Position numbers and translations under genes: made by a program. A DNA stretch of 64,000 bases, taken from an uncultured Bacteroidales bacterium. Its GTDB lineage: Bacteria; Bacteroidota; Bacteroidia; Bacteroidales; FEN-979. The stretch covers positions 7,870 to 71,869 of the forward strand of contig CAIWXI010000055.1 in the NCBI GenBank assembly GCA_903916595.1, written 5' to 3'. Below are positions 7,070 through 33,344 of the stretch, one piece after another; within the stretch, counting starts at the first letter, position 1; every line of letters starts with the position of its first letter. The notes below the pieces were generated by a model. That model had not been told where the DNA came from. It ran no database searches and worked only from the letters and a program-made list of their open reading frames with translations.

Positions 7070-7085
7070 AGTTGGGCGGCTGTAT

Positions 7086-10109: not shown

Positions 10110-10120
10110 TATCCGTTATT

Positions 10121-11308: not shown

Positions 11309-11332
11309 AATCTTCTCCTTTCTTTATGATCT

Positions 11333-12013: not shown

Positions 12014-12067
12014 TGTACAAAGATAATCGTATAATGAATAATCTCCATTTTTGAAGCAGCCGTTTTT

Positions 12068-13666
12068 TTATTCATTAATCAACAATTCGGCCAGGCGATC
12101 ATCCCTTTCATAAATATCTTCATAAAAGTTTATCTTACCTTGATGATCTACCCAGGTAGTAAGGTAGGCTATATAAACAGGTATTTTATTTTTCAACGAG
12201 TAGCTGCTCTCTATCCCGGCATGCATCGCGGCGTCGATCTTTCCAGGGGTCCAGTTCGGGTCATCCCTGAGAATCTCAATAGCAAGCTCACGAGGTTTTC
12301 CAACGCGTATGCAGCCGTGACTGAATGCCCTGCTTTCCCTTCCAAAGAGGCTTTTGGCAGGAGTGTCATGCATATAAATATCGTTGGAATTCGGAAAAAT
12401 GAACTTGATCAGCCCAAGTGAGTTGTTCTTTCCTGGTTTCTGTCGTACCTGACCATTGTTCCATTCCATGTTATGGATTTCAAGATAATTTTTGTTCTTC
12501 TTCATCCCCGGTTTGACTTCCTTGTTGATGATACTTTGGGGCAGATTCCAGTAAGGACTGAATACAATATAGCTTAACATCCCGCTGAAAATAACCGTCT
12601 TCGTTGTATTTTTCCCCACAACCACCGGTGATTCCAGATCGTTTTTCCCATCGCGGATCAGGTTCAGTCTGAAAGAGGGAATGTTTACGACGATATATTC
12701 TTTCACTTTCGCGAATTCGGGTGAAATCCACCGGCATCGTTCCATGTTGACAATGATTTTTTTGATGCGCTCACTAACGGGAATATTCATCTCCCTGATA
12801 TGTTTCCGGGAAATTAACTTTTCGGGAATATTGCCGTTATGTCGCTGATATTCCATTACCGCCTCTTCCAGCTCACTATCGTATTTGTTGGTTTTGTTGT
12901 TCTGTTTCATTTCACCGGTAACGAACAAGCGTTCCTTAATCTGTAGGATCGCTTCTGCAGTATCACCCGGCTTATAGGCTTTTAACTTTGGATTCAGGTC
13001 AATCGGCTTCCATCCTCCCCTTTTCTCAATTTCACGATATTCCTGGAGCACATCCCTCAGTTTGTAATACTGGTTGAACAACACACTGTCGGCGCGGTTA
13101 AGCAATACAGGGTCGGATTTGATTGAATCGAGCAAGGCGCTGTATGAGACTTCCTTTCGGGGGAGCAACCAACCCAATGCCATGGTCGTGGAATCATCCA
13201 GCCCTTCGTATACATTCTCAGCATAGAAAAGATACAGATTGGTGAGCATCAGCTCGGTCTCTGTTTTCGATAAGGCATTCTCCTTTTCATTTTCAAAGAC
13301 TCCGTCAACTTTTTGCTGGTAAGGGAATTTTGAAGATACACCCTCCACATCAAGGTCTTTAATCTTCCCGAAAAGTGTTTGACCAAATTCCACGACCCCG
13401 TGATTGTCATACCAGATGTGGTTGAAGCGGTGCTGCCGGTATACGCCAAGAACTTCCGGTTCGTATTTGCTCAGTAAAGGATATGTTTTATAGAATGCGA
13501 TCAGCAGGTTGCTGTCGAATGGCAGCTTGCTGTGCTGGTTAATAGCGCCATGGAGGTGAATGTCGGCTCCCTTTGCCAGCTGTCTCTTCTTTTTCAAATT
13601 GCAGGAGCCGGTAGCAAACAATAAGCCAATTGCGATAGCTATAAAAAGTAAGTAAGCTGTTCTCAT
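12068..13666 (-). CDS. L,D-transpeptidase, YcbB/LdtD-like lipoprotein
   Basis: Lipobox-like N-terminus (LLFATGSC). YMHDTPAKSLFGRESRAFSHGCIRV is the YkuD catalytic signature. Confidence 0.75.
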   Translation of the reverse strand: MRTAYLLFIAIAIGLLFATGSCNLKKKRQLAKGADIHLHGAINQHSKLPFDSNLLIAFYKTYPLLSKYEPEVLGVYRQHRFNHIWYDNHGVVEFGQTLFGKIKDLDVEGVSSKFPYQQKVDGVFENEKENALSKTETELMLTNLYLFYAENVYEGLDDSTTMALGWLLPRKEVSYSALLDSIKSDPVLLNRADSVLFNQYYKLRDVLQEYREIEKRGGWKPIDLNPKLKAYKPGDTAEAILQIKERLFVTGEMKQNNKTNKYDSELEEAVMEYQRHNGNIPEKLISRKHIREMNIPVSERIKKIIVNMERCRWISPEFAKVKEYIVVNIPSFRLNLIRDGKNDLESPVVVGKNTTKTVIFSGMLSYIVFSPYWNLPQSIINKEVKPGMKKNKNYLEIHNMEWNNGQVRQKPGKNNSLGLIKFIFPNSNDIYMHDTPAKSLFGRESRAFSHGCIRVGKPRELAIEILRDDPNWTPGKIDAAMHAGIESSYSLKNKIPVYIAYLTTWVDHQGKINFYEDIYERDDRLAELLINE

Positions 13667-13683
13667 GACTTTATTATTGTTTT

Positions 13684-14487
13684 TTACTTATGCTGGCTGA
13701 ATAACCATTCCATCATCAAAGGATCGCTGTAAGCTGCCAACCATGCAAAATGGCCGATACCAGGATAAAAAGTAAGCCCTGCACGTGACCCGGCCCTGGT
13801 CAAAGCGGTAATCATATCAAGGGAATAAAGAGGATTTACAGCGGCGTCTTCTGATCCATGAAAGATCCAGACTGGAATATGTGCAACAGATGCAGCTTTT
13901 GAGACATCACCACCTCCACAAACGGGAACAGCAGCAGCAAATAAACGTGGGTACCTCTCAATCGCATCGTAGGTTCCATAGCCTCCCATCGAAAGCCCGG
14001 TAATATAGATACGGTTCGTGTCGATCGAAAATGTTTTTATAAGCTGATGAATCAGTTCCAATACAAGTTCCATTGGTTTTGACGGATCCGGCCGAAGCCT
14101 CAATTCCCCGGTTTTTTCATTTTCGGCAAAGTTAGACCATTCCTGGTTTGCCGGGCATTGAGGAGCAATGACAATAGCCGGGTGCATGACCATTGCCTGG
14201 TCCGTCGCAAAATTCATTACACCCCATTTTAACTGAGCCTCGTTATCATTTCCCCGTTCACCTGAACCATGCAAGAAAATGACGAGAGGATATTTCCTCA
14301 CAGTATCATAATCAGGGAATAGCAGACGGTAATTCAGGGTATCGCCTTTACCGTTTGCGTACTTGTTAAAACAGAACCGGGATGATGATTGAGCCCATAT
14401 GCAGCTTGAACCTGTCAAACAGAAAAAGGCAATGAGAAAAAGAACTGGTCTCGATTGACCGTTGTTCCGGGAGTTTTTCTGATCCAT
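13684..14487 (-). CDS. secreted alpha/beta hydrolase (esterase / S9-like)
   Basis: Signal peptide, nucleophile elbow GLSMGGYG (G-x-S-x-G), and later HGSEDAAV and GIGHF, consistent with a Ser/Asp/His triad. Confidence 0.7.
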   Translation of the reverse strand: MDQKNSRNNGQSRPVLFLIAFFCLTGSSCIWAQSSSRFCFNKYANGKGDTLNYRLLFPDYDTVRKYPLVIFLHGSGERGNDNEAQLKWGVMNFATDQAMVMHPAIVIAPQCPANQEWSNFAENEKTGELRLRPDPSKPMELVLELIHQLIKTFSIDTNRIYITGLSMGGYGTYDAIERYPRLFAAAVPVCGGGDVSKAASVAHIPVWIFHGSEDAAVNPLYSLDMITALTRAGSRAGLTFYPGIGHFAWLAAYSDPLMMEWLFSQHK

Positions 14488-15596: not shown

Positions 15597-15917
15597 ATGA
15601 AAACAAAACAAGTCATTGAAATGCAGCTCATCGAAAAAGCGATGAAAGATCCCGATTTCAGGAAGCGGCTTCTTGAAAACCCGAAAGCAGTCATTCAGGA
15701 AATGACGGGGTTTGAACTTTCTCCATCCCTCAACCTGAGAATTCTCGAAGAGGATCCTCACACAGTGTACCTGATCCTTCCATTTATTCCGTCTCAACTA
15801 AATGAAAATGAACTGGATGAAACTGAGCTGGAAAGGATAGCAGGAGGGGGGCAATTTACAGGGTTCTCTTTTTGTCATACCTGTGGTTGTGACTCTTTTA
15901 CCCGTGAATGTGAGTAG
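15597..15917 (+). CDS. NHLP-leader RiPP/bacteriocin precursor A (core GQFTGFSFCHTCGCDSFTRECE)
   Basis: MKTKQVIEMQLIEKAMKDPDFRKRLLENPKAVIQEMTGF...TVYLILP...ELDETELERIAGG shows the nitrile-hydratase-like leader pattern ending in a double-glycine site. The track start at 15441 (TTG) looks like a spurious extension. An alternative ATG lies at 15582. Confidence 0.85.
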   Translation: MKTKQVIEMQLIEKAMKDPDFRKRLLENPKAVIQEMTGFELSPSLNLRILEEDPHTVYLILPFIPSQLNENELDETELERIAGGGQFTGFSFCHTCGCDSFTRECE

Positions 15918-19397: not shown

Positions 19398-20462
19398 ATG
19401 ACTGGAGCTCTTCAAGTTTTGATTGCTGAAGCCATCAGCAGCGCAATAGGTTTTCTGTTATGTTCAAGGGATGGGCAAGGGCTGTGGTCCGATTTCCGCC
19501 TTCCCATCGGGGAGAGCAGCGGGTGGGTCACCGGGTTTGTAGGTTCAGTCCTCGCCGGCTCTGGTGATGACCGTGTCATAAGGGAAACGAAGAATGTCTG
19601 GAATGTGTTTGCCGCTCAAAAACTGTTCACCGGTCACGGGGGATGGGGATATAACTTGCTCACCCCCGAGGATGCCGACAGCACGGTATGGGGTATCAGG
19701 TTTGCTCTAAGCCTCGGCCTGGATGGGAAGTTCAGGACAAAGGCAGCGGAGGAGTTTCTTCTGAAGCATTGGTTAACAGATGGCGGGATCACCACATACA
19801 TCCTTGAAAAAGAGCTTAGAAAACTGATTGGCGCCACGCCTGAAGAGGACATCCGGGGATGGACGGGTTCACACCTCTGTGTGACCGCCGCGGCTGCAGG
19901 GATTCCTGGGTTCAGCAGCATCCTTTTACCCTACATCCTGGAACATCAGCTTCCCGCCGGGAACTGGAATGGTTACTGGTGGAGCGATTCCGCTTATGCC
20001 ACAGCTCTTGCGACGGAGGCCCTGCTTGTCGCAGGAATGACTGAACACCGCGATGCAATTGACCGGGCGTTCTCCTGGGCGATGCAGCATTTCGGCAGGG
20101 AAGCTTTCGTTTCAAATGATATCTTTCGTGAGGGATCTCCCTTTGCCACAGCCCTGGCTTTAAAGACCCTGCTTCTTGCCGGGGAGGTTGACAAGACCCG
20201 TGAAAAATCCGGGGCGGTTGCCCGATGGCTCATCAGCCGGCAGCAGGACAACGGATCGTGGCAACCCTCTGCCTTGCTGCAGGTTCCTCCGCCTTTTATG
20301 AAAATACCGGTCGATCCCGGGAGCTGGCCTGATGGAAAAGGAGCTGCCTGGGGCACCGTGGTTACCGATCACAGGTCGTTGTTTACCACGGCAGCCGTAC
20401 TCGATTCGCTGGTGTTCTATCAGAAGACCCATTCAGGAACGATAAAGCCGGAAGCACTATGA
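19398..20462 (+). CDS. QW-repeat alpha/alpha-toroid protein (squalene-cyclase / prenyltransferase-repeat-like), single domain
   Basis: Repeats of the type a..(F/W/Y)L...Q..dG.W are present: GFLLCSRDGQGLW, YILEHQLPAGNW, RWLISRQQDNGSW and GHGGWGY. PEDADSTVWGIRFAL resembles the DxDD(T/S)A segment of class II cyclases. No signal peptide. Confidence 0.6.
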   Translation: MTGALQVLIAEAISSAIGFLLCSRDGQGLWSDFRLPIGESSGWVTGFVGSVLAGSGDDRVIRETKNVWNVFAAQKLFTGHGGWGYNLLTPEDADSTVWGIRFALSLGLDGKFRTKAAEEFLLKHWLTDGGITTYILEKELRKLIGATPEEDIRGWTGSHLCVTAAAAGIPGFSSILLPYILEHQLPAGNWNGYWWSDSAYATALATEALLVAGMTEHRDAIDRAFSWAMQHFGREAFVSNDIFREGSPFATALALKTLLLAGEVDKTREKSGAVARWLISRQQDNGSWQPSALLQVPPPFMKIPVDPGSWPDGKGAAWGTVVTDHRSLFTTAAVLDSLVFYQKTHSGTIKPEAL

Positions 20463-21526
20463 AACATTCGACCCCAGCCGAAAAGTATGCTAAACTTTAT
20501 ATCACGCAGGATCAGGTGCTTGGCGCTATGTCCGGCCGTTTCGGGCCCTTTTATCTTTCGGGTGGCGCTGCCCTCTCAAGGTATTACCTGAACCATCGCT
20601 TCACCTACGATCTGGATTTTTCAGCTAACATTTTACCCTGCTTTGAGAGAAAGGCTGCTCCTGTAGTTGACGTGCTGAAAACACAATGCCATGTTACTGA
20701 TGACGAACCAGCAGTTTACGCGCGATATTTCCACCTGTGGATACAGGGCAGCGAAAAGCTCAAGATCAGTATTTCAAACGACATTTCCGAACAATTGGGG
20801 TTGCCGTTTATGGCAGGGCAGGTTCCTGTGGATAATATGAAGAACATGCTGGTTAAAAAACTCAAAACCATTCTGGATCGTGATAACCCTAAAGATCTGT
20901 TCGATATCGTAAGTATTGCATCGGCCTACAGTTTTCATTGGGGTGATGTGTTGAAGTATGCGCAAAAGAAAGCCGTCATGGCCCAGGTGAATCTCTTATT
21001 GCAATTCAGCCGGGTTGCCTTCCGGTTTAACAGTATATGGCGCGGACGGGAACCAAAAGATCTGTTCAGCCTTTTGGGGGCTCCTCCGCCTATAGGTTTC
21101 AACAGGGTCTATCTGACTGCAAATATCGGGCGGAACGGCAGTAATTATGAAAAACCTTCTTCCACCATGGAATCCCTTTCGCGAGAGCTGCGACGTACTG
21201 CCTACAGGCTTAAAGCGATTTCAGAGTCGGATGGCCTCGCGAATGAGGCGCAGATCGCTGACATTCCTTCCTGTTTCAATCTGACACTGGGAGGGGCCTC
21301 CATAAGGATTGACCTGCCAGCGGTTTCTGTAAGGGACAAGGCCCTTAAACAATTCAGCCGGGTTCCGGCAGGACTTTACCAGGGTCTGGAATGGATGCAC
21401 TCTCCTGTTGCGGCAGAAGAACTGAAAGCGAAGTTCAAAATGATCAGGAATGATCTTTTCCTGGCCGGAGAAAATTCACTTGGCATTGGAAAAACTCCCA
21501 TTGATAAGGCCAGGCCGGGGCTATAA
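20459..21526 (+). CDS. AbiEii/DUF1814-like nucleotidyltransferase-fold protein
   Basis: N-terminal FYLSGGAALSRYYLNHRFTYDLDF fits the GG(T/A)AL...R.(S/T).D(I/L)DF pattern of AbiEii-family NTases. The start overlaps the upstream stop (ATGA at 20459-20462). Confidence 0.5.
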   Translation: MKHSTPAEKYAKLYITQDQVLGAMSGRFGPFYLSGGAALSRYYLNHRFTYDLDFSANILPCFERKAAPVVDVLKTQCHVTDDEPAVYARYFHLWIQGSEKLKISISNDISEQLGLPFMAGQVPVDNMKNMLVKKLKTILDRDNPKDLFDIVSIASAYSFHWGDVLKYAQKKAVMAQVNLLLQFSRVAFRFNSIWRGREPKDLFSLLGAPPPIGFNRVYLTANIGRNGSNYEKPSSTMESLSRELRRTAYRLKAISESDGLANEAQIADIPSCFNLTLGGASIRIDLPAVSVRDKALKQFSRVPAGLYQGLEWMHSPVAAEELKAKFKMIRNDLFLAGENSLGIGKTPIDKARPGL

Positions 21527-21568: not shown

Positions 21569-22600
21569 CTAGCGTATCATGGTTCCGAAATAGCCCTTGC
21601 ATTCAATAGGTGCATTTTCTTTGTACACAATTTTCAGGTGGTTTAGACCCCTGATATAGTTTGCCGGATAGGGAAACCTGCACTTTGTTTTTCCGCAGAA
21701 GCTCAGCAGGGCCTCCCGTTTTCCAGAGGTCACCAAATTGTCCGATTCCAGCACATCCAGCGCAGCCTCCCACCCCGGATTAAACCGGGGCTGGCTGAGA
21801 TTGTTAAAAAGCATCTCCAGGGCCAGATATGGAAGGATCTCCTTCCCTGTATTGATATTGCAGGCGAAGTAATCGAAAAGGCCGGCATATCGATCGGTCA
21901 GGAACCTGACTTTCTGAAAATCACCCGGCCAGCCGATATCCCGGAGGTAAGCTTCCAGGCGCACAGCGTTTATTTTTGTCAGCACCAGCCTCACTGCCTC
22001 CATATACCTGGGGATCATCAGACCGGTCTGGTATAAATTTGCATGTTCGGGAAGTGCATGGACGGCTGTTCTCAGACTTCCGGCCATCTCATCCGGGAAC
22101 GGAGTACCGGTAATGATCCGGTAGATTTCATCAAGGACACGGAGGGTTCCTTCAGATTGGGCTTTTCGGCCTGCTTTTTCGTCAACAATGATCCCGAAAA
22201 AAATATTCGGGCAGCGATTATACGATATTCCGTCAAAGTCAAACTCAAGCCAGACGGACCCTACCGAGACATCTAAAAGATGTCCCTGGGTATTCCATGC
22301 AATAAAAAACTTCCTTATTCTTTGCCAGAGGGGATCAGCGAGCAAATTTTCATGCAGATCCGACATTGGACTGGTACCGGCCAGTATCTTTGCCCCTTCA
22401 GTGTCTTTCCCGATCAGAAACGAAAAATCGCAGGCGGCCGCGGGCTCACCCAGCCGGCTTTCAAAGCCAAAATCGCGCGACAGGTCAAAAGGAAAAAGTG
22501 AACATAGCTCTTTCAATGAGTCCATGCAGCCACCCCCCATCAAGGTGGAATGAAGGGGGGTGGAAATGATTTCGATATGATCGGCGAAGGAAAGTTTCAT
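21569..22600 (-). CDS. 343-aa cytoplasmic orphan protein, last gene of the precursor B operon
   Basis: Long ORF with no signal peptide or TM segment. No family recognised. Strand-like segments (WLEFDFDG, HLKIVYK, ECKGYFG) vaguely recall ABBA prenyltransferase K-x-Y strands, but this is unverified. Confidence 0.6.
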   Translation of the reverse strand: MKLSFADHIEIISTPLHSTLMGGGCMDSLKELCSLFPFDLSRDFGFESRLGEPAAACDFSFLIGKDTEGAKILAGTSPMSDLHENLLADPLWQRIRKFFIAWNTQGHLLDVSVGSVWLEFDFDGISYNRCPNIFFGIIVDEKAGRKAQSEGTLRVLDEIYRIITGTPFPDEMAGSLRTAVHALPEHANLYQTGLMIPRYMEAVRLVLTKINAVRLEAYLRDIGWPGDFQKVRFLTDRYAGLFDYFACNINTGKEILPYLALEMLFNNLSQPRFNPGWEAALDVLESDNLVTSGKREALLSFCGKTKCRFPYPANYIRGLNHLKIVYKENAPIECKGYFGTMIR

Positions 22601-22642: not shown

Positions 22643-22930
22643 CTATGATCCCTGGCCGGGCCCCCCCCAACCTGTCCCCCCGGCAACTGAAGCCAGCTCT
22701 GCTTCGGTGAGTTCGTCTTCAGCAGCATCTCCCCGAAAGGGAGGAAGAACAAGGTAAACGGTTTTCTGATCCTCCTGCAGAATCTTTATTTTTATTGTTT
22801 CCGGAAGATTTATTCCAGTCTCCAGTTCGAAAATTAATTTTGGATTATCAATCAGCTTCTTACGGAATGAATCATCTTTCATCGCTTTTTCGATGATTTG
22901 CTCTTCAAGCTTTTTTCTGAGATTTGACAT
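22643..22930 (-). CDS. NHLP-leader precursor B (core TGWGGPGQGS as assembled)
   Basis: MSNLRKKLEEQIIEKAMKDDSFRKKLIDNPKLIFELETG...TVYLVLPP...ELTEAELASVAGG has the same leader family as precursors A and C. The core-coding part contains a G8 homopolymer, so the C-terminus is uncertain. Confidence 0.8.
   Translation of the reverse strand: MSNLRKKLEEQIIEKAMKDDSFRKKLIDNPKLIFELETGINLPETIKIKILQEDQKTVYLVLPPFRGDAAEDELTEAELASVAGGTGWGGPGQGS
22661..22668 (-). repeat. G8 homopolymer (C8 on plus strand) inside the core-coding region of precursor B
   Basis: Coding strand reads ACA GGT TGG GGG GGG CCC GGC CAG GGA TCA TAG. Confidence 0.95.
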
Positions 22931-22959: not shown

Positions 22960-24918
22960 TTATCGTTTGACGACAAGTTTCTTTGTCTCCATCCAGTCGG
23001 CTGTTTTAATTACGATATTATAGATTCCCTGGGAAGCCTGGGAAAGGTCAATACTATATTCTTTTTTTCCGCTGAATTTTTTCTCAAGGATGGCCCTGCC
23101 TGACTGATCTTCAACAAGGACATTCAGCGTTAAACAGCTTTCATTTGATGGTACGATCCGGAAAATACCCATTGTGGGATTCGGGTAGATCGAAACCTGG
23201 TTGCCCGAGCTTCCTGCCGGGTTGGAAACCCCGAGGGGGTCAATTATTTTAAAGGAAGCGATCCTTGTCTTGGGAGTACCAGCTCCTGTTGCATACTGAT
23301 TCGTGTACCAGAAAGTCTGGTCATCGGAAGGATCCACAGAGAGGGATGTATAATCACCCCAGCGTTCTGGCGATGAACCGCCGGACTGTGAGGTAGTACC
23401 CACCCATATTGTATCTTCAGCAATGTCGAGGATAGAGTTACCGGCCAGGTAAGCGGTAGCGGACTGACCACAGTAGCGAATCCCGGGGTATTCGCCATCG
23501 CTGGATATCGAATATCCCAGCCCTATGGTGTTGGATCCGTTCAACATGATGCTGCCCATCCACCGGCTGTTTGTATCAGGGGCATAAGTGCCTTCCTGTC
23601 TTATGCTCCAGTCGCTGCCGGTTTTTCGCAATTCATACCATCTGATCCCGGCCTGGCCCTTCTGATCTATATTTACAGTGTGGCAGCAAACGATGGTCTG
23701 GTACGATCCGAAGTTACGGTACTGGGGCACATTCATGATAATAGTGGGCACGGCATCAACTTTCTGGGTGGTTCCTTTCTGCCTGATATCTTCCCAGTTA
23801 CTGCCGAAGTTACTGTTAAAGGGTGTCACATCCAGTTGTTGAACACGGTTGAATGTCGATGCCGCCGTGTCGGTCCAGTTCACAGCCAGTTCATATATCC
23901 AAATCTGGTCTTTGGTTCCGCTGGAAGCATCATCGTTAATGGCAATATAAATGCCGGGAGATCCTGCCGGAGCAAAGGGTCCGTCATTATCTACAGGAGG
24001 AACAACCCTGAATCCTCCGCTTCCGCCCGGACGATAGGGATTTTTAATTCCGAAAAACTTGGGAATACTATCTCCCACCAGCATCTTCGACCTCTCATAA
24101 ACATAGGTATCCCTTCCCCCACTATTATTATTATCCCCCATATAATACCCATCCTGCCATACGCCGAATTTAGGGTAATCGGGCATTATGTCGGCCTTGA
24201 AAGAATACGGGTACCAGGTTCCCGTAGGGTCGTTTGTTGAGGATACGGCCATAAGAATATAATTCGGGGTCCCGTCTTTGGGCACCGAGAATTCTGTGGC
24301 CAGCCAGCGATCGGCCTGTTCGTCATACAGGATGACCGGATCACCGTCGTTCCGGTTTGCTCCCGGCTTATTGCCAAACAGCAGGTTCATATCAGTAGGC
24401 CCGGCTACAAGTGTGCCTGTTTTATCATATATAGCATACGTGTCATTCATCGTCTGCATGTAATGGTTTTTACCAACGGTCCCGTTATCGTCGGAAGGCC
24501 GGGATCCTGACTCCTGTCCTTCAAAATTTTTCAGCGGACTGCGGAAAAGCTTCTGAGTTCCCATATTTTTCTGCCAGGCCCCGTCCTCACCTTTTGGGAG
24601 GGCTGTTTCAGCAAAAGGATAGGTACGCTCCGACTTTTCTTCATTAATTGTCCGTTTGCTGTTTTTAAGTTTCAGCGCATTGAATTCATCAGCAGTTAAT
24701 GCAGGAAGATCGCGTAAAGGACGGGTTTCACCCAGGAAAGTCCCGGTCCCCACTATGGTAGGGTGAACCGGTATTGTTGGTGTGAATGAGTTTTGATCTG
24801 GCTTTTTAGCCGAAGAAGATGATTGGTTCTGGGCATAGACGCCCCTTGCCAGGAGCAGTATTATCAGCAACATGAAAAGGGAATAATAGTTCCCCGAAGA
24901 AGCAGAATGTGTTTTCAT
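22960..24918 (-). CDS. T9SS-secreted protein of unknown function (possible beta-propeller)
   Basis: Signal peptide (LLIILLLARGVYAQ). C-terminal VSIYPNPTMGIFRIV...GIYNIVIKT...KKLVVKR indicates a T9SS sorting domain. There are Asp-box-like segments such as SSTNDPTGTW. The stop lies 29 nt before precursor B. Confidence 0.75.
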   Translation of the reverse strand: MKTHSASSGNYYSLFMLLIILLLARGVYAQNQSSSSAKKPDQNSFTPTIPVHPTIVGTGTFLGETRPLRDLPALTADEFNALKLKNSKRTINEEKSERTYPFAETALPKGEDGAWQKNMGTQKLFRSPLKNFEGQESGSRPSDDNGTVGKNHYMQTMNDTYAIYDKTGTLVAGPTDMNLLFGNKPGANRNDGDPVILYDEQADRWLATEFSVPKDGTPNYILMAVSSTNDPTGTWYPYSFKADIMPDYPKFGVWQDGYYMGDNNNSGGRDTYVYERSKMLVGDSIPKFFGIKNPYRPGGSGGFRVVPPVDNDGPFAPAGSPGIYIAINDDASSGTKDQIWIYELAVNWTDTAASTFNRVQQLDVTPFNSNFGSNWEDIRQKGTTQKVDAVPTIIMNVPQYRNFGSYQTIVCCHTVNIDQKGQAGIRWYELRKTGSDWSIRQEGTYAPDTNSRWMGSIMLNGSNTIGLGYSISSDGEYPGIRYCGQSATAYLAGNSILDIAEDTIWVGTTSQSGGSSPERWGDYTSLSVDPSDDQTFWYTNQYATGAGTPKTRIASFKIIDPLGVSNPAGSSGNQVSIYPNPTMGIFRIVPSNESCLTLNVLVEDQSGRAILEKKFSGKKEYSIDLSQASQGIYNIVIKTADWMETKKLVVKR

Positions 24919-25080: not shown

Positions 25081-26967
25081 CTAAGAAAGATTATCTTCAT
25101 TTTCACGACTGCTGGCAATGGAATTCCTAAAATAAGAAGGCGTTATACCGATCTGTTTTTTGAAGATAGAATGAAACGTAACTTTTGTACTGAAACCTAC
25201 CATTTCCCCTATGCCTTCTATGGAGAGATGGTCATATTTTGATTCTGTAAGAAGCCTCCTCGCCTCCTTGATCCTCAGCTCGTTTATAAAGCTGTTGAAG
25301 TTCTGTTTGTAATTATCATGGATCATGTGCGAAAGGTAAGTGCGGTTTGTGTTTAATTTCCTGCAGATATCATCTACAGTGAGGCCTGGTTCAAGGAAAG
25401 GTTTTTCGTCCTGCATTAACCGGCTGAACTTTACCAACAGACCCAGGGTAGTGTTTTCAATTTCATTATCCGGAGGGATAACCATGATTTGATCATCAGA
25501 GATGCTTATGCTTCTCCGGGCTTCAATCTGTTTCTCGGTTTTTACGATTTCCAGGTTCTTCCTGACGATTTGCCTGAATGCCCTGCTCTTTTGCCGGTAT
25601 AACATCGAAATCACAAAACCCAGCACTAAAAGTACAAAAGCAACTCCGGCTAAGAATTTTATCTGTAATTTCTGAAGATTGTTGGCTTTTTGCAATAAAA
25701 GATTTTCCTGCTCTTTCTTTTCTGTTTCAAAACGGGTTTGCATTTCAAGAATTGCCTTGGTTTTATCTTCGCTAAAGATGCTGTCACCTGCAATCCGGTA
25801 TCTCGAAAAAAAATCTTTGGCAGCAGATTTATCGCCGGTGATTATACTTATTTCGGTCAAATAGCGGCTGCATTTCTGTATCATTTCAAGTGAATTTTCC
25901 TCACTGGCATAGTCGAATGCTTCCCGGAACATTTTGGTCGCAGCTGCCAGATTGCCTTTATTATATAAGATTTCACCCAGGCTCACGTTCAAGCTGGCAA
26001 TCTCAGCGCCCGATCCGATACTATTGGCCAGGGCCAGGGCTTGCTCATAATATTCAATTGCTTTTGGTTCGTTCTTCAGCAAATCAGCATATACATCTCC
26101 CAGACAGTGAAGGGAAATTACGATCCCGTATTTATTGCCGATTTCTTTTTTCAGCTCAAGAGATTTCCGATGATAAAATAAGGCTGAATCCGGTTGTTTG
26201 AGGTCTACGTAGAGATCTCCAAGAGCAGTATAATTAGTGGCCAGGTATTTCTTGTTCTTCCTTTTCAGGTTAATTGAGATGGCTTTCTTCAAAAACAAGC
26301 TGGTCATTTTATTATTGTCCCAGTCAAAATATACCAAACCGAGATTGTTATAGGTTGCCGCCAGGCCGTCTGAATCGGCAAGCTCCTCTTTCAGCCTGGC
26401 TGATTCGAGAAAGTATTTTGTGGCTTTTTCATAGAATGATGTTTGTTTATAGGTGGAAGCCATGTTGTTGTATAGCTTCGCCATTTGCGGCTTGTCATTT
26501 ACAGGCAGAAGTATTTCCCTTGCCTTTTCATAATAATTCAACGCGTCGGAAAATCTGCCCATGTAATAGTAAGTAGTTCCGATATCAGTATAAATTTTTC
26601 CGATGTCAAGTGGTTCTTTTAGTTCCCGGGCTATGCTTAGCGCATGATCATAGCAGGCCAGAGAACTGTCATATTCGCCCAGCATCTGATAAATGTTGGC
26701 AAGATTCCGCTGCATGGACATGCCGGCTAATGTTTTTCCGAAATCATGCTTTTTGCTGAATTGCAGCAGCTTTTCTTTTGCTATAAGGTAATTTCCTGAT
26801 AACCTGAAAAGCTCAAAAGACTTCTGTAAAAAAAACAGGGCGCTGTCTGATTTACCTGAATTGATAAAGCCTTCAGAAAGTAAAAGACAGGAGTCGGCCG
26901 ATTTCTCCTGGGTAAAAACGAAATAGCCGGATAGAAAAAAAATCAGCAATAAAATCAATCGCTTCAT
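25081..26967 (-). CDS. transmembrane one-component regulator: extracytoplasmic TPR domain - TM - cytoplasmic AraC-type HTH
   Basis: N-terminal signal/anchor MKRLILLLIFFLSGYFVF, then about 400 aa of TPR-like repeats, a TM segment FLAGVAFVLLVLGFVISMLY, and a C-terminal AraC HTH (TVDDICRKLNTNRTYLSHMI...IGEMVGFSTKVTFHSIFKKQIGITPSYFR). Confidence 0.8.
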   Translation of the reverse strand: MKRLILLLIFFLSGYFVFTQEKSADSCLLLSEGFINSGKSDSALFFLQKSFELFRLSGNYLIAKEKLLQFSKKHDFGKTLAGMSMQRNLANIYQMLGEYDSSLACYDHALSIARELKEPLDIGKIYTDIGTTYYYMGRFSDALNYYEKAREILLPVNDKPQMAKLYNNMASTYKQTSFYEKATKYFLESARLKEELADSDGLAATYNNLGLVYFDWDNNKMTSLFLKKAISINLKRKNKKYLATNYTALGDLYVDLKQPDSALFYHRKSLELKKEIGNKYGIVISLHCLGDVYADLLKNEPKAIEYYEQALALANSIGSGAEIASLNVSLGEILYNKGNLAAATKMFREAFDYASEENSLEMIQKCSRYLTEISIITGDKSAAKDFFSRYRIAGDSIFSEDKTKAILEMQTRFETEKKEQENLLLQKANNLQKLQIKFLAGVAFVLLVLGFVISMLYRQKSRAFRQIVRKNLEIVKTEKQIEARRSISISDDQIMVIPPDNEIENTTLGLLVKFSRLMQDEKPFLEPGLTVDDICRKLNTNRTYLSHMIHDNYKQNFNSFINELRIKEARRLLTESKYDHLSIEGIGEMVGFSTKVTFHSIFKKQIGITPSYFRNSIASSRENEDNLS

Positions 26968-26985: not shown

Positions 26986-27279
26986 CTAGTAAAAACACAT
27001 AGGAGAGCAGCTATAATCATTTACATAGCCTCCGGCAACTGCCTCCAGTTCTGCATCGGTCAATTCCGAGTCAACTTCAGTTGAAGCCAGACGAGGCAGC
27101 ACCAGGTATATGGTGCCCGGGTCTTCTTCGAGAATTTTCAAGGTTACTGATTCAGAAACTGCTACACCCATTTCATTAATAATTACTGCTGCCGGGTTGT
27201 CAATAAGTCTTTTTCTGAAATCCATATCTTTCAGGGACATTTCGATGAGCTTTGGTTCGATTTCTTTTCTCAGGTTCAT
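26986..27279 (-). CDS. NHLP-leader precursor C (core YVNDYSCSPMCFY)
   Basis: MNLRKEIEPKLIEMSLKDMDFRKRLIDNPAAVIINEMG...TIYLVLP...ELTDAELEAVAGG. The gene ends 18 nt before the TPR-AraC gene on the same strand. Confidence 0.85.
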   Translation of the reverse strand: MNLRKEIEPKLIEMSLKDMDFRKRLIDNPAAVIINEMGVAVSESVTLKILEEDPGTIYLVLPRLASTEVDSELTDAELEAVAGGYVNDYSCSPMCFY

Positions 27280-27394: not shown

Positions 27395-28201
27395 ATGATT
27401 GGCCGGCAGATTTTCAGAAAAACGTCGCTTGAGAAAATGATGACCCCCGAGGACCTGGATGAATTATTGCAGGTCAACCCGACCAGGACATGGCTGATGT
27501 TTGCAGGTATAGGTGTTGTTATTGCCGGGATGCTGGCCTGGGGAATCCTTGGGTCGGTAACGCAGTATGTGAAAGGATTCGGGATCATCAAGACCCGGGA
27601 GCTGCCCCGGGAGGTAGTATCGGTTTGTTCGGGGCAGGTTGATTCGATTTTCTGTAAGACCGGTGATGAGGTTGCCCAGGGCCAAAAATTGTTAATGATT
27701 CTCCAGCTGCACGAACAAACAGGTGTAACTATTTTCGCTTCCTGCCCGGGCGAAATCACCGGACTGAATGTCAGGGAAGGCACTTATGTTGAAACGGGCG
27801 CTCCAGTGCTTGAGATGATGCGAAATGAAGGCCATACCGGGACCTTTCCCGAGGTGATCTTCTTTGTGGAGGAACAGGAGGTTTCAAAGCTGAAAAAGGG
27901 GATGGTTTCCAACCTGCAAATTGATAAGGGGGGAGTGCCTCCTGAATTTTTAAATGCGGTGATCAATTTTATTGCTGATTACCCGGTTTCGAAAAATTCA
28001 ATCCAAAAATATTTTCCGGATGAGGAAATAACGAAGCAACTCAGCAACAGGGATTTCCATGAAGTCAGGGCAAGCCTGATTATCGATACGGTCGGGAAAA
28101 CGGCCCGCGCAAAGGAGGCTCTGCATTCATTAAACGGCCTATCCTGCCGCACTGTTACCACAGTGGCCCGCCGAAGTCCGGTTGCTTATCTTTTAAACTG
28201 A
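27395..28201 (+). CDS. HlyD-family membrane-fusion/adaptor protein of the NHLP bacteriocin export system, unusually short
   Basis: N-terminal TM segment (WLMFAGIGVVIAGMLAWGILG). The split lipoyl-like halves GQVDSIFCKTGDEVAQGQKLLMI and GEITGLNVREGTYVETGAPVLEM are only about 16 aa apart. It is the first gene of the exporter trio. Confidence 0.65.
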   Translation: MIGRQIFRKTSLEKMMTPEDLDELLQVNPTRTWLMFAGIGVVIAGMLAWGILGSVTQYVKGFGIIKTRELPREVVSVCSGQVDSIFCKTGDEVAQGQKLLMILQLHEQTGVTIFASCPGEITGLNVREGTYVETGAPVLEMMRNEGHTGTFPEVIFFVEEQEVSKLKKGMVSNLQIDKGGVPPEFLNAVINFIADYPVSKNSIQKYFPDEEITKQLSNRDFHEVRASLIIDTVGKTARAKEALHSLNGLSCRTVTTVARRSPVAYLLN

Positions 28202-28224
28202 TCAGGCTAATCATACTCTTCTGC

Positions 28225-30423
28225 ATGAGCTTTGAACCGATTCACTTCCTTCATTCAGTTTACTGCCGGCTTGCAGGTATAAGGCGGGTTAAAACTCCCA
28301 CGGTTCTGCAGATGGAGGCCCTGGAATGCGGGGCAGCTTCTCTGGGGATCGTATTGGCCTGCTTCGGGAAGAATGTTCCCCTCGAAAAGCTGAGGGTCGA
28401 CTGCGGTGTATCACGCGACGGGAGCTCGGCAAGCAACATCTCCAAAGCAGCAAGGAATTATGGCCTGGAAGTAAAGGCTTATAAAAAAGAGCCGGAAGAA
28501 CTTAAAAAGCTTCCTCTCCCGATGATCGTATTCTGGAATTTTTACCATTTCCTGGTTGTCGAAGGGTTTGGGAAAAACAAAGTTTACCTAAACGACCCGG
28601 CTTCCGGCCCACGTACGGTGGACTATAAAACCTTTGATGAATCCTTTACAGGAGTGGTATTGACTTTTAAACCCGGACCCGGATTTCAGAAAGAAGGCGA
28701 AAAAACGAAGTTTCTTCCCTTGTTGCTGAAATGGTTAAAAGGGTATGGAAACAGCCTGTTGTTCCTTTTCCTTGTAGGACTTGCCCTTATTATCCCCGGA
28801 CTGGCCATCCCGGTATTTTCAAAAATATTTGTCGACCAGATCCTGATCCGGCATACGGAAGCCTGGATCGTTCCCCTGCTTACAGGCATTGCAATTACTA
28901 CCATACTACGTGCTCTGTTGTCGTGGTTGCAGCAGCATAGCCTGGTACGATTGGAAATGAGTCTTTCACTTAAGAATTCCTCGAAATTTCTCTGGCACGT
29001 ACTCCATCTTCCAATGTCGTTTCATAACCAGCGGCCGGCCGGTGATATTACCATGCGGGTAAACATCAACGACCAGATTGCCATGCTGCTTTCGGGGCAG
29101 CTTGGCAATACTTTCCTGAATTTATTCATGATCGCATTTTACGCGGCCCTGATGTGTTATTACAGCCTTCCGCTGGCTGCGGTTGCCATTTTCATCTCAC
29201 TGGTAAACCTTCTCGCACTGAGATATATTTCAAGGAAACGGGTTGATTCAAATCAAAAACTCCTGCAGGATAACGGCCGTTTATTCGGGCTTTCTTCTTC
29301 AGGTTTGCAGATGATAGAGTCATTAAAAGCAACAGCTTCCGAATCGGAATTTTTCTCACGCTGGGCCGGCTACCAGGCAAAATTGCTGAACATCCAGCAG
29401 AGACTGGGGGTGCTTACCCAGACCCTGCAGGTAATCCCTGTATTTCTTACTACTCTGAGCACCCTGGTGATACTGTTTCTCGGGTCACATTATATTATCA
29501 GCGGGGTGATAACTGTGGGTACTTTTGTCGCATTCCAGTCGCTGATGGCCAGTTTTAATCAGCCTATCGTAGCCCTGGTTAACCTTGGAAGCGCACTGCA
29601 GGATGTGCAGGGAGGGCTGAAACGGATAGAGGATGTTTATAATTATCCTACAGGCCAGCCGGATGCTGATGCAACTGAATCTCAAAAAGCCGGAAAAGTT
29701 TTAAAACTGCAGGGATCGGTTGAACTTAAGGATGTGACGTTTGGTTACAGCCCGCTGGATTCGCCCCTGATCACTGGTTTTTCTCTGCACCTGAACCCGG
29801 GATCCAGGGTCGCTATCGTTGGAAGGACCGGTTGCGGAAAGTCGACCATGGCCAACCTGGTCAGCGGATTGTATGATCCATGGAAAGGAGAGATACTGTT
29901 TGACGGCAAACCCAGAGAGAGCTTTTCTCATACTACCCTGAATAATTCCATTTCCATGGTCGATCAGAACCTCTTCCTTTTTGAAGGAACTGCCAAGGAG
30001 AATATTACTTTCTGGGATCAGACCATTGCCGACAAAGATGTAATACAGGCGGCTAAAGACGCCTGCATTCATGAAGACATTGCGGCCAGACCCGGAGCAT
30101 ATGAAAGCATGATATCCGAAAACGGGAGGAATCTGAGCGGGGGTCAGAGGCAGCGGATCGAAATTGCAAGGGCGCTTGCCACCAAACCATCTGTATTGAT
30201 ACTTGATGAGGCCACCAGTGCCCTGGATGCAAAGACAGAGCAGATGATAGATATCAATATCCGTAAAAAAGGATGCACCTGCCTCATCATCGCTCACCGC
30301 CTGAGCACGATCCGTGACTGCGACGAAATCATCGTGATGGACAGGGGGAGGATAGTGCAAAGAGGAACCCACCAGGAACTGATAATCCAGCAGGGATTAT
30401 ATAACGAACTGATCAAAGAATAA
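28225..30423 (+). CDS. bacteriocin-processing ABC transporter with N-terminal C39 peptidase domain (double-glycine leader cleavage/export)
   Basis: C39 motifs QMEALECGAASLG (Cys), NFYHFLVVEG (His) and NDPASG. There is a 6-TM ABC membrane domain, Walker A GRTGCGKST, signature LSGGQRQRIEIARAL and Walker B LILDEATSALD. Confidence 0.9.
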   Translation: MSFEPIHFLHSVYCRLAGIRRVKTPTVLQMEALECGAASLGIVLACFGKNVPLEKLRVDCGVSRDGSSASNISKAARNYGLEVKAYKKEPEELKKLPLPMIVFWNFYHFLVVEGFGKNKVYLNDPASGPRTVDYKTFDESFTGVVLTFKPGPGFQKEGEKTKFLPLLLKWLKGYGNSLLFLFLVGLALIIPGLAIPVFSKIFVDQILIRHTEAWIVPLLTGIAITTILRALLSWLQQHSLVRLEMSLSLKNSSKFLWHVLHLPMSFHNQRPAGDITMRVNINDQIAMLLSGQLGNTFLNLFMIAFYAALMCYYSLPLAAVAIFISLVNLLALRYISRKRVDSNQKLLQDNGRLFGLSSSGLQMIESLKATASESEFFSRWAGYQAKLLNIQQRLGVLTQTLQVIPVFLTTLSTLVILFLGSHYIISGVITVGTFVAFQSLMASFNQPIVALVNLGSALQDVQGGLKRIEDVYNYPTGQPDADATESQKAGKVLKLQGSVELKDVTFGYSPLDSPLITGFSLHLNPGSRVAIVGRTGCGKSTMANLVSGLYDPWKGEILFDGKPRESFSHTTLNNSISMVDQNLFLFEGTAKENITFWDQTIADKDVIQAAKDACIHEDIAARPGAYESMISENGRNLSGGQRQRIEIARALATKPSVLILDEATSALDAKTEQMIDINIRKKGCTCLIIAHRLSTIRDCDEIIVMDRGRIVQRGTHQELIIQQGLYNELIKE

Positions 30424-30434
30424 GGATAGCTGCC

Positions 30435-33344
30435 ATGCCGCAAGAACTGTTTTCTGCAACAATTCGCAACAAGGGCCAAACGGTAAAAACCGGGGGGAAC
30501 CGGTCTTTCCTGTTGAATCAGCCTGAGTATGCCTGGTATTTTGCCCATGGTTACGCAGATGTTTTTTCTGTCAGGCTCGACCATGAGCAGCCCCGTGGTT
30601 CAAGGAATTATTTTTTCTCAGCCCGCCAGGGGGAATTTCTTTTTGGCATCAGCAGCAAGCATTCGGGCGATGAACGCAGTTTGATTGCCTCTCCTTCTCC
30701 GGATGCGGAAATCATTATGATCAGTATGGATCAGGTCAAAGAGCTGTGGAGCCGGACTGAGTTTACTGCAATTTTTACAGGGATACTCGAACTCTGGATC
30801 ACCCATCTTTCCCTGGCTATTTCAAAAGATATCAACCCGCGTACTGATCTGCTGCTTGAAGCCCCCATTCCGGCCAGCGTGGATGCCCATCTGAAGATCC
30901 GCTCAAGAAAAGGAATTGTATGGACGGAATTCTTTTCCGGAAACGCCTTATTTCTGGGGATGAAGGAAATCATGGAATCCGGGGAACACCTGAAATTCCC
31001 GGTTTCACAGGATTCCTGGCTGCAGACCATGGAAACTTCTGAAATCAGGTCATTTCGAACAGCCGACATTTACTTGCTGGGAGAGCTCTGGAATTACCTT
31101 GAAAATTTTTATGCAGTAATTTTTTTCTGTGAATTTTTCATTACCCGTCTCACTGCTGTTGACGACTTCAACCGTTTGAACGAGAAAACTGTTCATAGCT
31201 CAAGGGTACGTTCCTCGGCTCTCCTTAACATTGCCTCGGTTATCAATGAGAAGCTGAGAAAATCATATATTGATACCGGTTACGATGCATTGCTCACCTC
31301 ATGCCGCATTATTGCTGATTATTCGGGGATTACCATCACCACACCCAAACAACCCAGAAGTGAGGAAGCCCCTCCGCTGAGCCTGAACGACATTTTGCGT
31401 TCTTCAAGGTTCAGGGCCCGAAAAGTAAAACTCACAGGCAAGTGGTGGGAAGAGGACCATGGACCCTTGCTGGCCTGGACAACAGATGAAAATCTTCCTG
31501 TTGCCCTGATCCCGAAATCTCCCGGGAAATATGAATATATCAGCCCGGGTGAAAATATAAGACAGCCTTTAACTTCGAAAACAGCCCTGCAGCTGGCCCC
31601 GGAAGCTCAACAGTTTTATCGTCCTTTCCCCGATCAGCCCATCGGAGGCATGCATCTGATCAGGTTTGGGCTGAAGAACTGCTTCCGGGATATCCTTCTC
31701 GTCATCTTGATGGGACTGGCAGGCGGCTTCCTCGCCTTACTTATCCCGGTGTTGACGGGAAACATCTTTGATGCTGTAATCCCCCAATCCGACTACCGGC
31801 AGTTATACGTTTTTTCGATGGTCATCTTTTTCAGCATTGTCGCTATTTCCCTGTTTCAGATGGTGAGGAGTTTCGCGATGATCAGGATAGAAACAAAGCT
31901 CGATTTTTCGCTGCAATCGGCATTATGGGACCGCCTGCTCAATTTACCCGTTTCCTTTTTCAGGAGATACCAGGCCGGCGATCTTGCTAATAAGGCAAAC
32001 GGCCTGATGATGCTGCGTAAAACACTTTCCGATACCGTGATTTACAGTGTGCTTGGCGCAGTTTTCATGCTGTTTAACTTTTTCCTGCTGTTTTTTTATG
32101 ACGTTGCTCTTACCTTGTATGTTTTTCTTTTCCTGGTCATATCCCTTCTCTTTATTTTTTATTTCGGGAAGCAGATCCAAAAGCGTCAGCAAATTATCAC
32201 TCAGCTTCAGGGCAGGATTTTCGGTATGCTGATCCAGTTTTTATCCAGTATCTCCAAGATAAAGATCGCCGGCGCTGAAGTCCATGCCTTTTCGCAATGG
32301 GCCATGAAGGTCTCGGTGGTTAAAAGACAAACCTATGAAGTAAGAAAGCTGTTTAAGGTGGTCTCCGTGTTTTCGATGGTAGTGCCCCTTGTAATCACAC
32401 TGTTTGTTATTGCGGTTATTTCCTGGCAGCCGCCAGATACACTCTCGACCGGTCAGTTCATGGGATTTTACACCGCATTGACTATGACCGTTGTATCGTT
32501 CTTTCAGTTTGGAATGGCCGTCATTTCGTTTTTCATGGCAATTCCGATGCTCGAAAGCATACGCCCGATACTGGAGGCTCTGCCCGAGAATATCGCCCTG
32601 AAGGAGGACATCAGGGAACTTTCAGGCGAAATTGAGGTTGCCAATGTCAGTTTCAGATACCAGCCTGATTTGCCCTTAGTGCTTCATGATGTTTCTTTAC
32701 ACATCCGGCCCGGAGAATTCGTAGCTATTGCTGGAGCTTCAGGTTCAGGAAAATCGACTTTATTACGCTTGCTGCTTGGCTTTGAATCACCCGAGGTCGG
32801 CTCAATATTTTATGACCGCCAGGATATTTCAGCATTTGATCCTGCATCAATAAGAAGGCAGGCCGGAACAGTGCTTCAGCAATCGCAGCTGTCGGTGGGG
32901 ACCCTGCTCACCAATATCACCGGCATGGGTAACGCGACGTTTGAAGATGCGTGGGAAGCAGCCCGGAATGTGGGCCTCGACGAGGACATCAAGCAAATGC
33001 CGATGGGGATGCACACCATGATTACAGGGGGATTGAGCACTATTTCAGGCGGTCAGTGTCAGCGCATCATGATCGCCCGGGCTATCGTGAACAAGCCCCG
33101 TATACTGTTCTTTGATGAAGCTACCAGCGCACTCGATAATAAAACCCAGAATATCGTCAGTAAAAGCCTTGAAACGCTCCAGGCCACGAGGGTGGTTATC
33201 GCCCATCGTCTGACTACGGTTCAGCATGCCGACCGGATTTACCTGATGGAACATGGAAGTATCGAAGAATCGGGAACCTATGAAGATCTGCTCAGAAAAG
33301 GCGGAAAATTCGCTGAACTGGTAAAGCGGCAGATGCTTGAATAA
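30435..33344 (+). CDS. second ABC permease/ATPase of the NHLP export system, with ~400-aa non-peptidase N-terminal extension
   Basis: Walker A GASGSGKST, signature ISGGQCQRIMIARAI and Walker B LFFDEATSALD. There is a TM domain. The N-terminal region lacks the C39 Cys motif, and as I recall such paralogues are described as cNMP-binding-like. Confidence 0.85.
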   Translation: MPQELFSATIRNKGQTVKTGGNRSFLLNQPEYAWYFAHGYADVFSVRLDHEQPRGSRNYFFSARQGEFLFGISSKHSGDERSLIASPSPDAEIIMISMDQVKELWSRTEFTAIFTGILELWITHLSLAISKDINPRTDLLLEAPIPASVDAHLKIRSRKGIVWTEFFSGNALFLGMKEIMESGEHLKFPVSQDSWLQTMETSEIRSFRTADIYLLGELWNYLENFYAVIFFCEFFITRLTAVDDFNRLNEKTVHSSRVRSSALLNIASVINEKLRKSYIDTGYDALLTSCRIIADYSGITITTPKQPRSEEAPPLSLNDILRSSRFRARKVKLTGKWWEEDHGPLLAWTTDENLPVALIPKSPGKYEYISPGENIRQPLTSKTALQLAPEAQQFYRPFPDQPIGGMHLIRFGLKNCFRDILLVILMGLAGGFLALLIPVLTGNIFDAVIPQSDYRQLYVFSMVIFFSIVAISLFQMVRSFAMIRIETKLDFSLQSALWDRLLNLPVSFFRRYQAGDLANKANGLMMLRKTLSDTVIYSVLGAVFMLFNFFLLFFYDVALTLYVFLFLVISLLFIFYFGKQIQKRQQIITQLQGRIFGMLIQFLSSISKIKIAGAEVHAFSQWAMKVSVVKRQTYEVRKLFKVVSVFSMVVPLVITLFVIAVISWQPPDTLSTGQFMGFYTALTMTVVSFFQFGMAVISFFMAIPMLESIRPILEALPENIALKEDIRELSGEIEVANVSFRYQPDLPLVLHDVSLHIRPGEFVAIAGASGSGKSTLLRLLLGFESPEVGSIFYDRQDISAFDPASIRRQAGTVLQQSQLSVGTLLTNITGMGNATFEDAWEAARNVGLDEDIKQMPMGMHTMITGGLSTISGGQCQRIMIARAIVNKPRILFFDEATSALDNKTQNIVSKSLETLQATRVVIAHRLTTVQHADRIYLMEHGSIEESGTYEDLLRKGGKFAELVKRQMLE

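Follow-up and report, generated by a model that had tools for sequence, protein, structure and literature searches.

The window analysed here is a stretch of 64,000 nucleotides (nt) from an uncultured Bacteroidales bacterium of the FEN-979 lineage (assembly GCA_903916595.1, contig CAIWXI010000055.1, positions 7,870 to 71,869), and the subject of this analysis is its gene at 21569-22600, which encodes a 343-amino-acid (aa) protein directly downstream of a small gene for a peptide precursor (precursor B). We find that this protein is predicted to form the prenyltransferase (PT) barrel, also called the alpha-beta-beta-alpha (ABBA) fold, and we are highly confident that it belongs to the same family as prenyltransferases that have been assayed on peptides. 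It is likely that the protein is a soluble PT-barrel peptide prenyltransferase alkylating the Trp in the core of precursor B, and that a terpene cyclase and a C39 exporter encoded in the window act after it, the chemistry, the donor, the acceptor and the order of the steps being what we infer from the evidence below. The observations that carry this reading are the gene itself, its conservation, the predicted fold, the sequence family, the joining of both partners in one Nostoc protein and the linkage with genes for precursors.

The gene is an intact open reading frame (ORF) of 343 codons, from ATG to TAG, that starts 42 nt past the stop of precursor B. A sequence-only reading of the window had called its product an orphan that could not be assigned to a family, and database searches agree with that description: the protein had no match at E ≤ 1 in Pfam, NCBIfam or PHROGs except for one NCBIfam line at chance level (E = 0.007, with a score of 16 bits where the cut-off is 291), and the PDB sequence search returned no match. 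From end to end it is matched by 61 homologue clusters with 26–99% identity, all of them labelled ‘hypothetical’ and mostly from Bacteroidota metagenome bins. Because these clusters align over the full length, the ORF is, judged from the alignments, a real gene and not a chance ORF. The genome carries one copy, and the gene is rare: of 301 Bacteroidota genomes sampled, 4 have it. A family profile run against 1.84 billion representative proteins retrieved 3,924 proteins (representative clusters) at E ≤ 1e-3 and 1,378 at E ≤ 1e-30; as far as such searches tell, the protein is a member of a large family with neither a curated Pfam nor a curated NCBIfam model. The same reading had proposed a ‘new’ tailoring enzyme, and this holds for the missing models but not for the family as such, which was recognised in 2024-2025 through NctPC and MppC (PMC13290415, PMC12715784).

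The AlphaFold2 model, built from a 46-sequence alignment, was confident (mean predicted local distance difference test, pLDDT, of 95; predicted template modelling score, pTM, of 0.92) and consists of five alpha-beta-beta-alpha repeats. DSSP assigned the strand pairs 43-49/57-64, 113-120/132-137, 188-194/203-208, 244-251/255-264 and 313-327/333-342, with helix pairs separating the strand pairs and a short extra strand (303-307) before the last pair, so that the model shows the ten-stranded barrel of five repeats by which the PT-barrel is defined. When the model was compared with the PDB by Foldseek, 30 matches were obtained at E ≤ 1e-3, and the best 50 matches were all ABBA prenyltransferases. 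Those acting on small molecules or free Trp were 5-DMATS (E = 1.5e-6), PriB, NphB/Orf2, IptA, AnaPT, AmbP3, CymD, FunA, AtaPT, CdpNPT, FgaPT2, NotF and CloQ, and the cyanobactin enzymes were PatF, PirF and LimF (E = 2e-3 to 2e-2). The faint likeness to ABBA-type aromatic prenyltransferases suggested earlier from the sequence is thus borne out by the model, and no unrelated housekeeping family, the result that would have spoken against it, was found among the best 50 matches. A HopA1-like lyase and a role in class V lanthipeptide formation had also been considered for the protein and were dropped once the fold was clear. According to the model, the protein has the barrel fold of aromatic prenyltransferases.

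Conservation was measured over 150 family representatives with mutual identities of at most 50%. Eleven polar residues show no or almost no variation (E47, D58, E119, D121, R198, R204, E262, H321, K323, K335 and Y337), and W117-L-E119-F-D121, H321-x-K323 and K335-x-Y337 form the most conserved part of the family. The three segments picked out by eye in the sequence-only reading, WLEFDFDG, HLKIVYK and ECKGYFG, hold W117, E119, F120, D121, H321, K323, K335 and Y337, all invariant in the family, so those motifs were real. Ten of the eleven residues lie on or right beside barrel strands in the model, R204, H321, K323, K335 and Y337 being on the strands themselves, while R198 lies in a short helix between strands 5 and 6. 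The window protein and the two cyanobacterial proteins described next, from Nostoc and Moorena, keep all eleven.

The link to published enzymes comes from these two proteins. The first is a fusion: P0073, a Nostoc protein of 726 aa ranking 13th among the 3,924 profile matches, carries the family domain at its N-terminus and an SQHop_cyclase domain at its C-terminus, and its 90% cluster consists of Nostoc proteins of 707-745 aa. The window prenyltransferase aligned to residues 12-348 of the 707-aa Nostoc fusion with 32% identity (BLASTP E = 8e-49), and the window cyclase aligned to residues 379-703 of the same protein with 40% identity (E = 7e-69); the Nostoc prenyltransferase-cyclase fusion scored 297 bits against the family profile. 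Since the two window proteins match the N- and C-terminal halves of one polypeptide, the window carries, on these alignments, a split form of the Nostoc fusion. The Nostoc locus contains HlyD, a C39-ABC exporter, two NHLP precursors (core TDTQNHSWTGCASGQSGC..., with one Trp), a PhyH oxygenase, the fusion protein and LanM. The earlier suggestion that a prenyltransferase would suit the single Trp in the core of precursor B and a neighbouring QW-repeat protein was well placed as to the latter, because that neighbour is the MstE-type cyclase and the two activities are joined in this NHLP/LanM cluster of Nostoc. In the literature (PMC13290415, PMC12715784), NctPC is described as the prenyltransferase-cyclase fusion of polycyclic-isoprenoid RiPPs, that is, peptides made on the ribosome and modified after translation, and the account of Hubrich et al. 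(Chem 2024, 10:3224) in the 2026 review PMC13290415 states that it geranylgeranylates Trp (C20) and then cyclises the isoprenoid.

The second protein is P0231, 375 aa, encoded beside an MppE-type precursor in Moorena producens, a locus that we located with the MppE precursor sequence given in the supplement of PMC12715784. P0231 aligned to the family profile by hhalign with a probability of 100% (E = 3.4e-49), carries all the family-invariant motifs, and has F334 at the position of the published F340 of MppC (offset +6). The one remaining unannotated protein of this Moorena locus, of 354 aa, was tried as a candidate for MppC and rejected, being unrelated to the family and having no PDB match. 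MppC has the alpha-beta-beta-alpha architecture, geranylates Trp at C5 in a LanM-cyclised peptide with a Nif11 leader, is active only when the leader is attached, and has relatives that co-localise with LanM, Nif11 and NHLP genes (Wakeel et al., PMC12715784). On the alignments, the window protein is regarded as a member of the family holding both assayed enzymes, NctPC and MppC. In a quick, midpoint-rooted tree, indicative only, the Nostoc fusion falls beside the Bacteroidota clade, and the Moorena protein belongs to the family's other half. In the Moorena locus we also observed a 716-aa protein in which an amine-oxidase-type flavoenzyme is joined to SQHop_cyclase_C (L036 in Table 1), about 360 nt from the MppC-like gene and beside a Trp halogenase; a cyclase-type domain may thus be part of the mpp cluster as well.

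Other family members are fused to other enzymes. Besides the C-terminal SQHop_cyclase, the fusion partners are a 2-oxoglutarate (2OG)-Fe(II) oxygenase, an S-adenosylmethionine (SAM) methyltransferase and a sulfotransferase, which suggests that the prenylated residue or the isoprenoid is processed further. The oxygenase fusion lies in a Nif11/LanM cluster of Leptolyngbya boryana (L034) whose precursor ends ...EIKW, and the methyltransferase and sulfotransferase fusions are represented by P0193 and P0183. We also observed a 699-aa protein (L035) in which the family domain is C-terminal to an unannotated domain of ~330 aa; its neighbour is a 53-aa peptide ending ...DNDGWV, and because it sits in a radical-SAM/SPASM cluster, the family is not restricted to NHLP/Nif11-LanM clusters.

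The neighbourhood set comprised 24 family genes from 23 non-redundant loci including the window, with up to 10 kb fetched on each side. The sequence-only reading had taken the position behind a RiPP-type precursor as a sign of a tailoring enzyme and had asked for co-occurrence to be checked; an NHLP precursor was found somewhere in the locus with 21 of the 24 prenyltransferase genes, and for 12 of them it was directly upstream on the same strand, while several others had a precursor directly downstream. LanM was nearby in 18 cases, a HlyD/C39-ABC exporter in 12, an MstE-like cyclase in eight and an AbiEii-like protein in seven. Because the order and orientation of the genes vary between loci, the association with precursors is not simple inherited synteny, and the linkage to an NHLP or Nif11 precursor, LanM and a C39 exporter holds across rearranged loci of Bacteroidota and two cyanobacterial genera. 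The window itself has the clustering with precursor and exporter that is typical of leader-dependent RiPP prenyltransferases, its exporter being 4.8 kb from the prenyltransferase gene. On one Bacteroidia contig (L010), 12.7 kb hold at least ten genes for NHLP precursors together with a single prenyltransferase gene, a single LanM and a pair of MstE-like cyclase genes.

Precursor B, earlier proposed to be an NHLP-leader precursor, is a genuine one, matching the NHLP leader model TIGR03793 with 83.8 bits against a cut-off of 50.9. Its leader (residues 1-85) ends ...ELTEAELASVAGG and is followed by TGWGGPGQGS, a Cys-free core of ten residues with a single Trp at core position 3. In the loci of the three nearest relatives, the cores directly upstream of the orthologous prenyltransferases are TGWGGPGQGS in L006 (identical), TANWGGPGQGT in L007 and GAWTDRGDPMDS in L001, all of them short, Cys-free and with Trp as the sole aromatic residue, and in the clade of the window protein the gap of 42-56 nt between precursor and prenyltransferase is kept together with a conserved x-W-G/T core. 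The reading frame of this core depends on a run of eight C (G8 on the coding strand), and the sequence-only reading had also considered a G7 frame, which would extend the core to 25 aa and indeed give an ATGA overlap with the next gene. That frame is ruled out as the native one: in a DNA alignment, the run reads GGGGGGGA in L006 and L007, whose 10-aa cores are identical or nearly so and whose stop is the same. Since both keep the same frame and stop there, the assembled G8 frame is, by this comparison, the native one.

Table 1 Features of the window and of related loci (coordinates of L010, L034, L035 and L036 are those of the respective locus).
Feature	Coordinates	Strand	Basis or remark
Precursor A	15597-15917	+	NHLP leader; Cys/Ser/Thr-rich core GQFTGFSFCHTCGCDSFTRECE
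Monodomain class II terpene cyclase, MstE type	19398-20462	+	PDB 6sbg (MstE), E = 1.3e-61 over residues 10-339
AbiEii-like nucleotidyltransferase-fold protein	20459-21526	+	PF08843, E = 5e-10; start overlaps cyclase stop
Predicted PT-barrel (ABBA-fold) peptide prenyltransferase, unannotated RiPP-associated family	21569-22600	-	ORF, homologues, model, Foldseek
Precursor B, probable substrate	22643-22930	-	95 codons; NHLP leader, L(X)4L motif (ELTEAEL), AGG cleavage site
Core of precursor B	22646-22675	-	TGWGGPGQGS
C8 run in core B	22661-22668		G8 on coding strand
Leader of precursor B	22676-22930	-	residues 1-85
T9SS (type IX secretion system) cargo	22960-24918	-	652-aa T9SS-sorted protein; same strand as precursor B, 29 nt away
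Tetratricopeptide repeat (TPR) + AraC-type helix-turn-helix regulator	25081-26967	-	Pfam; orthologues in L004, L006, L007
Precursor C	26986-27279	-	NHLP leader; core YVNDYSCSPMCFY
Export/leader-removal trio	27395-33344	+	Pfam; orthologues beside 12/24 prenyltransferase genes
Short HlyD-like adaptor	27395-28201	+	
C39-peptidase ATP-binding cassette (ABC) transporter	28225-30423	+	
Second ABC transporter	30435-33344	+	
L010, Bacteroidia locus	1-12704		
L034, family member + 2OG-Fe(II) oxygenase fusion	8001-9761		Leptolyngbya boryana
L035, 699-aa protein with family domain	7674-10100		
L036, flavoenzyme + SQHop_cyclase_C fusion	12231-14381	-	Moorena

In the scheme that we prefer, the prenyltransferase would recognise the NHLP leader of precursor B, by analogy with the leader dependence of MppC, and would bind an isoprenyl diphosphate inside the barrel, with R198, R204, H321, K323, K335 and Y337 as putative ligands and the acidic E47, D58, E119, D121 and E262 acting with or without Mg2+. 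A donor of C15-C20 would be favoured because a cyclase is present, and such donors are plausible because one of the three polyprenyl synthases of the genome is of the short-chain IdsA/GGPP-synthase type. The donor would be ionised and the indole of Trp3, the sole Trp of the core, alkylated; we lean towards this residue as the acceptor. The MstE-type cyclase, probably the partner that cyclises the attached isoprenoid, would then protonate the terminal double bond through its DxD acid motif, which is kept (‘PEDADSTVW’ in the window, ‘GDADTTGW’ in MstE) and whose role is described in PMC12324236. Finally, the C39-ABC exporter would cut after the GG of the AGG site and secrete a short linear peptide with a terpenoid on its Trp.

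Several points weigh against this scheme, the first of which concerns the acceptor. Trp is present in nine of the 12 cores adjacent to a prenyltransferase gene, and the remaining three start with Tyr or have Tyr at position 2. A Trp enrichment of adjacent cores over the other cores of the same clusters was sought and rejected, Trp making up 4.2% of residues in the former and 4.9% in the latter; what marks the adjacent cores is the lack of Cys (5/12 against 3/44 of the other cores). Trp at 4-5% of core residues is several times the typical proteome value. With these counts in view, we regard it as unlikely, though not negligible, that the protein is an active peptide prenyltransferase whose acceptor is something other than Trp3 of core B, such as a Tyr or the N-terminus of precursor A or C, or that the cyclase does not act on its product. 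Core C (YVNDYSCSPMCFY) begins with Tyr, Trp is as frequent in cores that are not adjacent, only eight of the 24 homologues have a cyclase nearby, and besides Trp, the ABBA peptide prenyltransferases known so far act on Tyr, Ser/Thr, His, Arg and N-termini (PMC12715784). Against another acceptor, the pairing of precursor and prenyltransferase is conserved at 42-56 nt together with cores in which Trp is the only aromatic residue, and both characterised relatives modify Trp.

The second point is the substrate. In published cases, lanthionine ring formation precedes prenylation. No LanM was found in the genome of the window, which is 97.8% complete, when we searched with PF05147, PF13575 and a LanM protein query; as a control, the PF13575 search recovered LanM in the genomes of L006 and L007, which have one to three LanM each. 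A LanM-cyclised substrate is thus not what we see here, core B having no Cys and the genome no LanM, and for these reasons the enzyme, as far as the genome sequence goes, must act on a linear, non-lanthipeptide substrate, unlike the published cases. Precursors A and B and C are the three NHLP precursors of this genome, all inside the window, and we observed that A and C have Cys-rich, lanthipeptide-like cores despite the LanM-free genome. LanM has either been lost, in which case these precursors are relics or disulfide peptides, or is encoded in unassembled sequence. Precursor A is probably not a substrate of the 343-aa enzyme.

The third point is that the likeness to ABBA enzymes is at the level of the fold, with TM-scores of ~0.5, a root-mean-square deviation of 7-9 Å and 9-14% identity. 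Profiles made from 46 and from 120 family sequences found no ABBA enzyme in the PDB, and a Pfam scan of 120 family members matched no prenyltransferase family (PTase_Orf2, Trp_DMAT). Because these searches, like the single-sequence search, gave nothing, the tie to known ABBA prenyltransferases is one of fold only. In addition, the conserved residues would point into the barrel, judging from their alternation with hydrophobic residues along the strands and not from coordinates. It is conceivable, if quite improbable, that the barrel does not transfer a prenyl group at all and instead serves the cyclase or exporter as a chaperone or leader-binding scaffold, or is an enzyme for a non-isoprenoid electrophile: PatF, an inactive cyanobactin barrel, is among the Foldseek matches, and a cluster without LanM departs from the published model. 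Eleven polar residues kept (nearly) invariant in 150 members, and all of them retained by the window protein and by the Nostoc and Moorena proteins, are the signature of a catalytic site and not of a scaffold.

The fourth point concerns the reference enzymes themselves. P0231 is probably MppC, judging from the organism, architecture, locus content and the F334/F340 offset and not from a comparison with the deposited sequence, and the Nostoc fusion P0210 is taken to be NctPC from its organism, architecture and locus, likewise not from the published sequence. Residues 312-336 of P0231, which match the leader contacts of MppC (published F340 and W336 are F334 and Y330 in P0231), form an insertion of ~15-20 residues that falls at the alignment columns around window residues 303-313 and is missing in the window clade; because of this, leader binding may differ with NHLP leaders. 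That the protein instead prenylates a small aromatic metabolite, as NphB, CloQ and the MstE pathway do, and lies by a peptide gene incidentally is very improbable, because the facts that MstE acts on a prenylated small aromatic acid and that the top Foldseek matches use small molecules or free Trp are set against the linkage to NHLP/Nif11, LanM and C39 genes across rearranged Bacteroidota and two-genus cyanobacterial loci, the lack of polyketide or shikimate-type genes beside the prenyltransferase among its annotated window neighbours, and the rejection of free L-Trp by MppC (PMC12715784).

If peptide prenylation is right, the product could be a lanthionine-free linear decapeptide with a cyclised terpenoid on Trp, secreted not as an antibiotic but as a signal like ComX, which the TPR-AraC regulator recurring in the cluster would sense; we offer this as a doubtful idea only. 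Were it true, Bacillota would no longer be the only phylum with an isoprenylated peptide pheromone system, and a terpene-cyclised one would be on record for the first time.

Among the neighbouring genes, the AbiEii-like gene is near seven of the 24 prenyltransferase genes, six of which also have an MstE-like cyclase, and the two occur together in the window, L001, L004 (with two prenyltransferase genes), L006 and L007; no antitoxin partner of the AbiEii-like gene was noticed in the window. The second ABC transporter carries ~400 additional N-terminal residues without a Pfam match, and it is kept with the cluster in relatives at 57-83% identity. The sequence-only reading had placed the T9SS cargo gene, precursor B and the 343-aa protein in one operon, which the comparison with relatives does not support: the arrangement is not conserved, the cargo gene is beside none of the 23 related loci, and we rejected it as a part of the system and treat it as a window-specific insertion. 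It stands between the TPR-AraC regulator and precursor B, a position unique to the window genome, and the relatives carry the exporter or the regulator where the window has this gene.

The first peptide-terpene hybrids with cyclised isoprenoids were reported in 2024, the enzymes being cyanobacterial fusions, and the novelty of the present system is limited by the papers of 2024-2025 on such enzymes. Distinctive here are an architecture split over two genes, a genome free of LanM and a conserved decapeptide core without Cys, and these features make the variant worth testing at the bench. The same two activities, as predicted, are encoded as separate genes in uncultured freshwater Bacteroidota, and if the scheme is true, prenylation and cyclisation need no pre-formed macrocycle and a very small linear peptide suffices as the substrate, which would be useful for biocatalytic lipidation. 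There is also an annotation gap: with ~3,900 clusters lacking a Pfam or NCBIfam model, genome-mining tools label these maturases ‘hypothetical’ and report their clusters as maturase-less.

Among known systems, ComQ/ComX of Bacillus resembles the window in that a short linear exported peptide carries an isoprenoid on Trp (predicted in the window), although ComQ is all-helical, resembles trans-isoprenyl-diphosphate synthases and has an unrelated fold (PMC13290415). The small-molecule ABBA/DMATS enzymes include the best structural matches (NphB/Orf2, CloQ, 5-/6-DMATS, PriB and FgaPT2, E = 1.5e-6 to 1e-3, TM-scores of 0.47-0.59) and share with the window protein basic and Tyr residues on the strands, K-x-Y motifs included, whereas the window protein lies outside their Pfam families and in a peptide context. 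The cyanobactin F-family (PagF, PirF, LimF and PatF) has the PT-barrel fold and peptide substrates in common with it, the latter predicted in the window, but similarity in sequence is not detectable, and those enzymes act leader-free on N-C macrocycles made by PatA/PatG proteases, of which none was found among the annotated neighbours. MppC, if P0231 is this enzyme, is of the same sequence family, adjoins its precursor, modifies Trp as predicted for the window, and has a precursor in which an L(X)4L motif and also a GG site occur; it differs in its ~25% identity to the window protein, its place on the other main branch of the tree, the Nif11 leader of its precursor where the window has NHLP, its preference for a LanM-cyclised core, its leader-contact residues in a C-terminal insertion absent from the window protein, and in that no partner cyclase is reported for it. 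From the NctPC system the window differs in that the two predicted activities are encoded by separate genes, which lie on opposite strands and flank the AbiEii-like gene, that its host is an uncultured bacterium of the Bacteroidota, that core B is a 10-mer free of Cys, and that LanM is missing from the genome; yet both systems combine an ABBA-fold prenyltransferase part of low similarity to cyanobactin prenyltransferases with an MstE-like monodomain class II cyclase part, and both have a Trp acceptor (predicted in the window), a long NHLP-type leader and a C39-ABC exporter.

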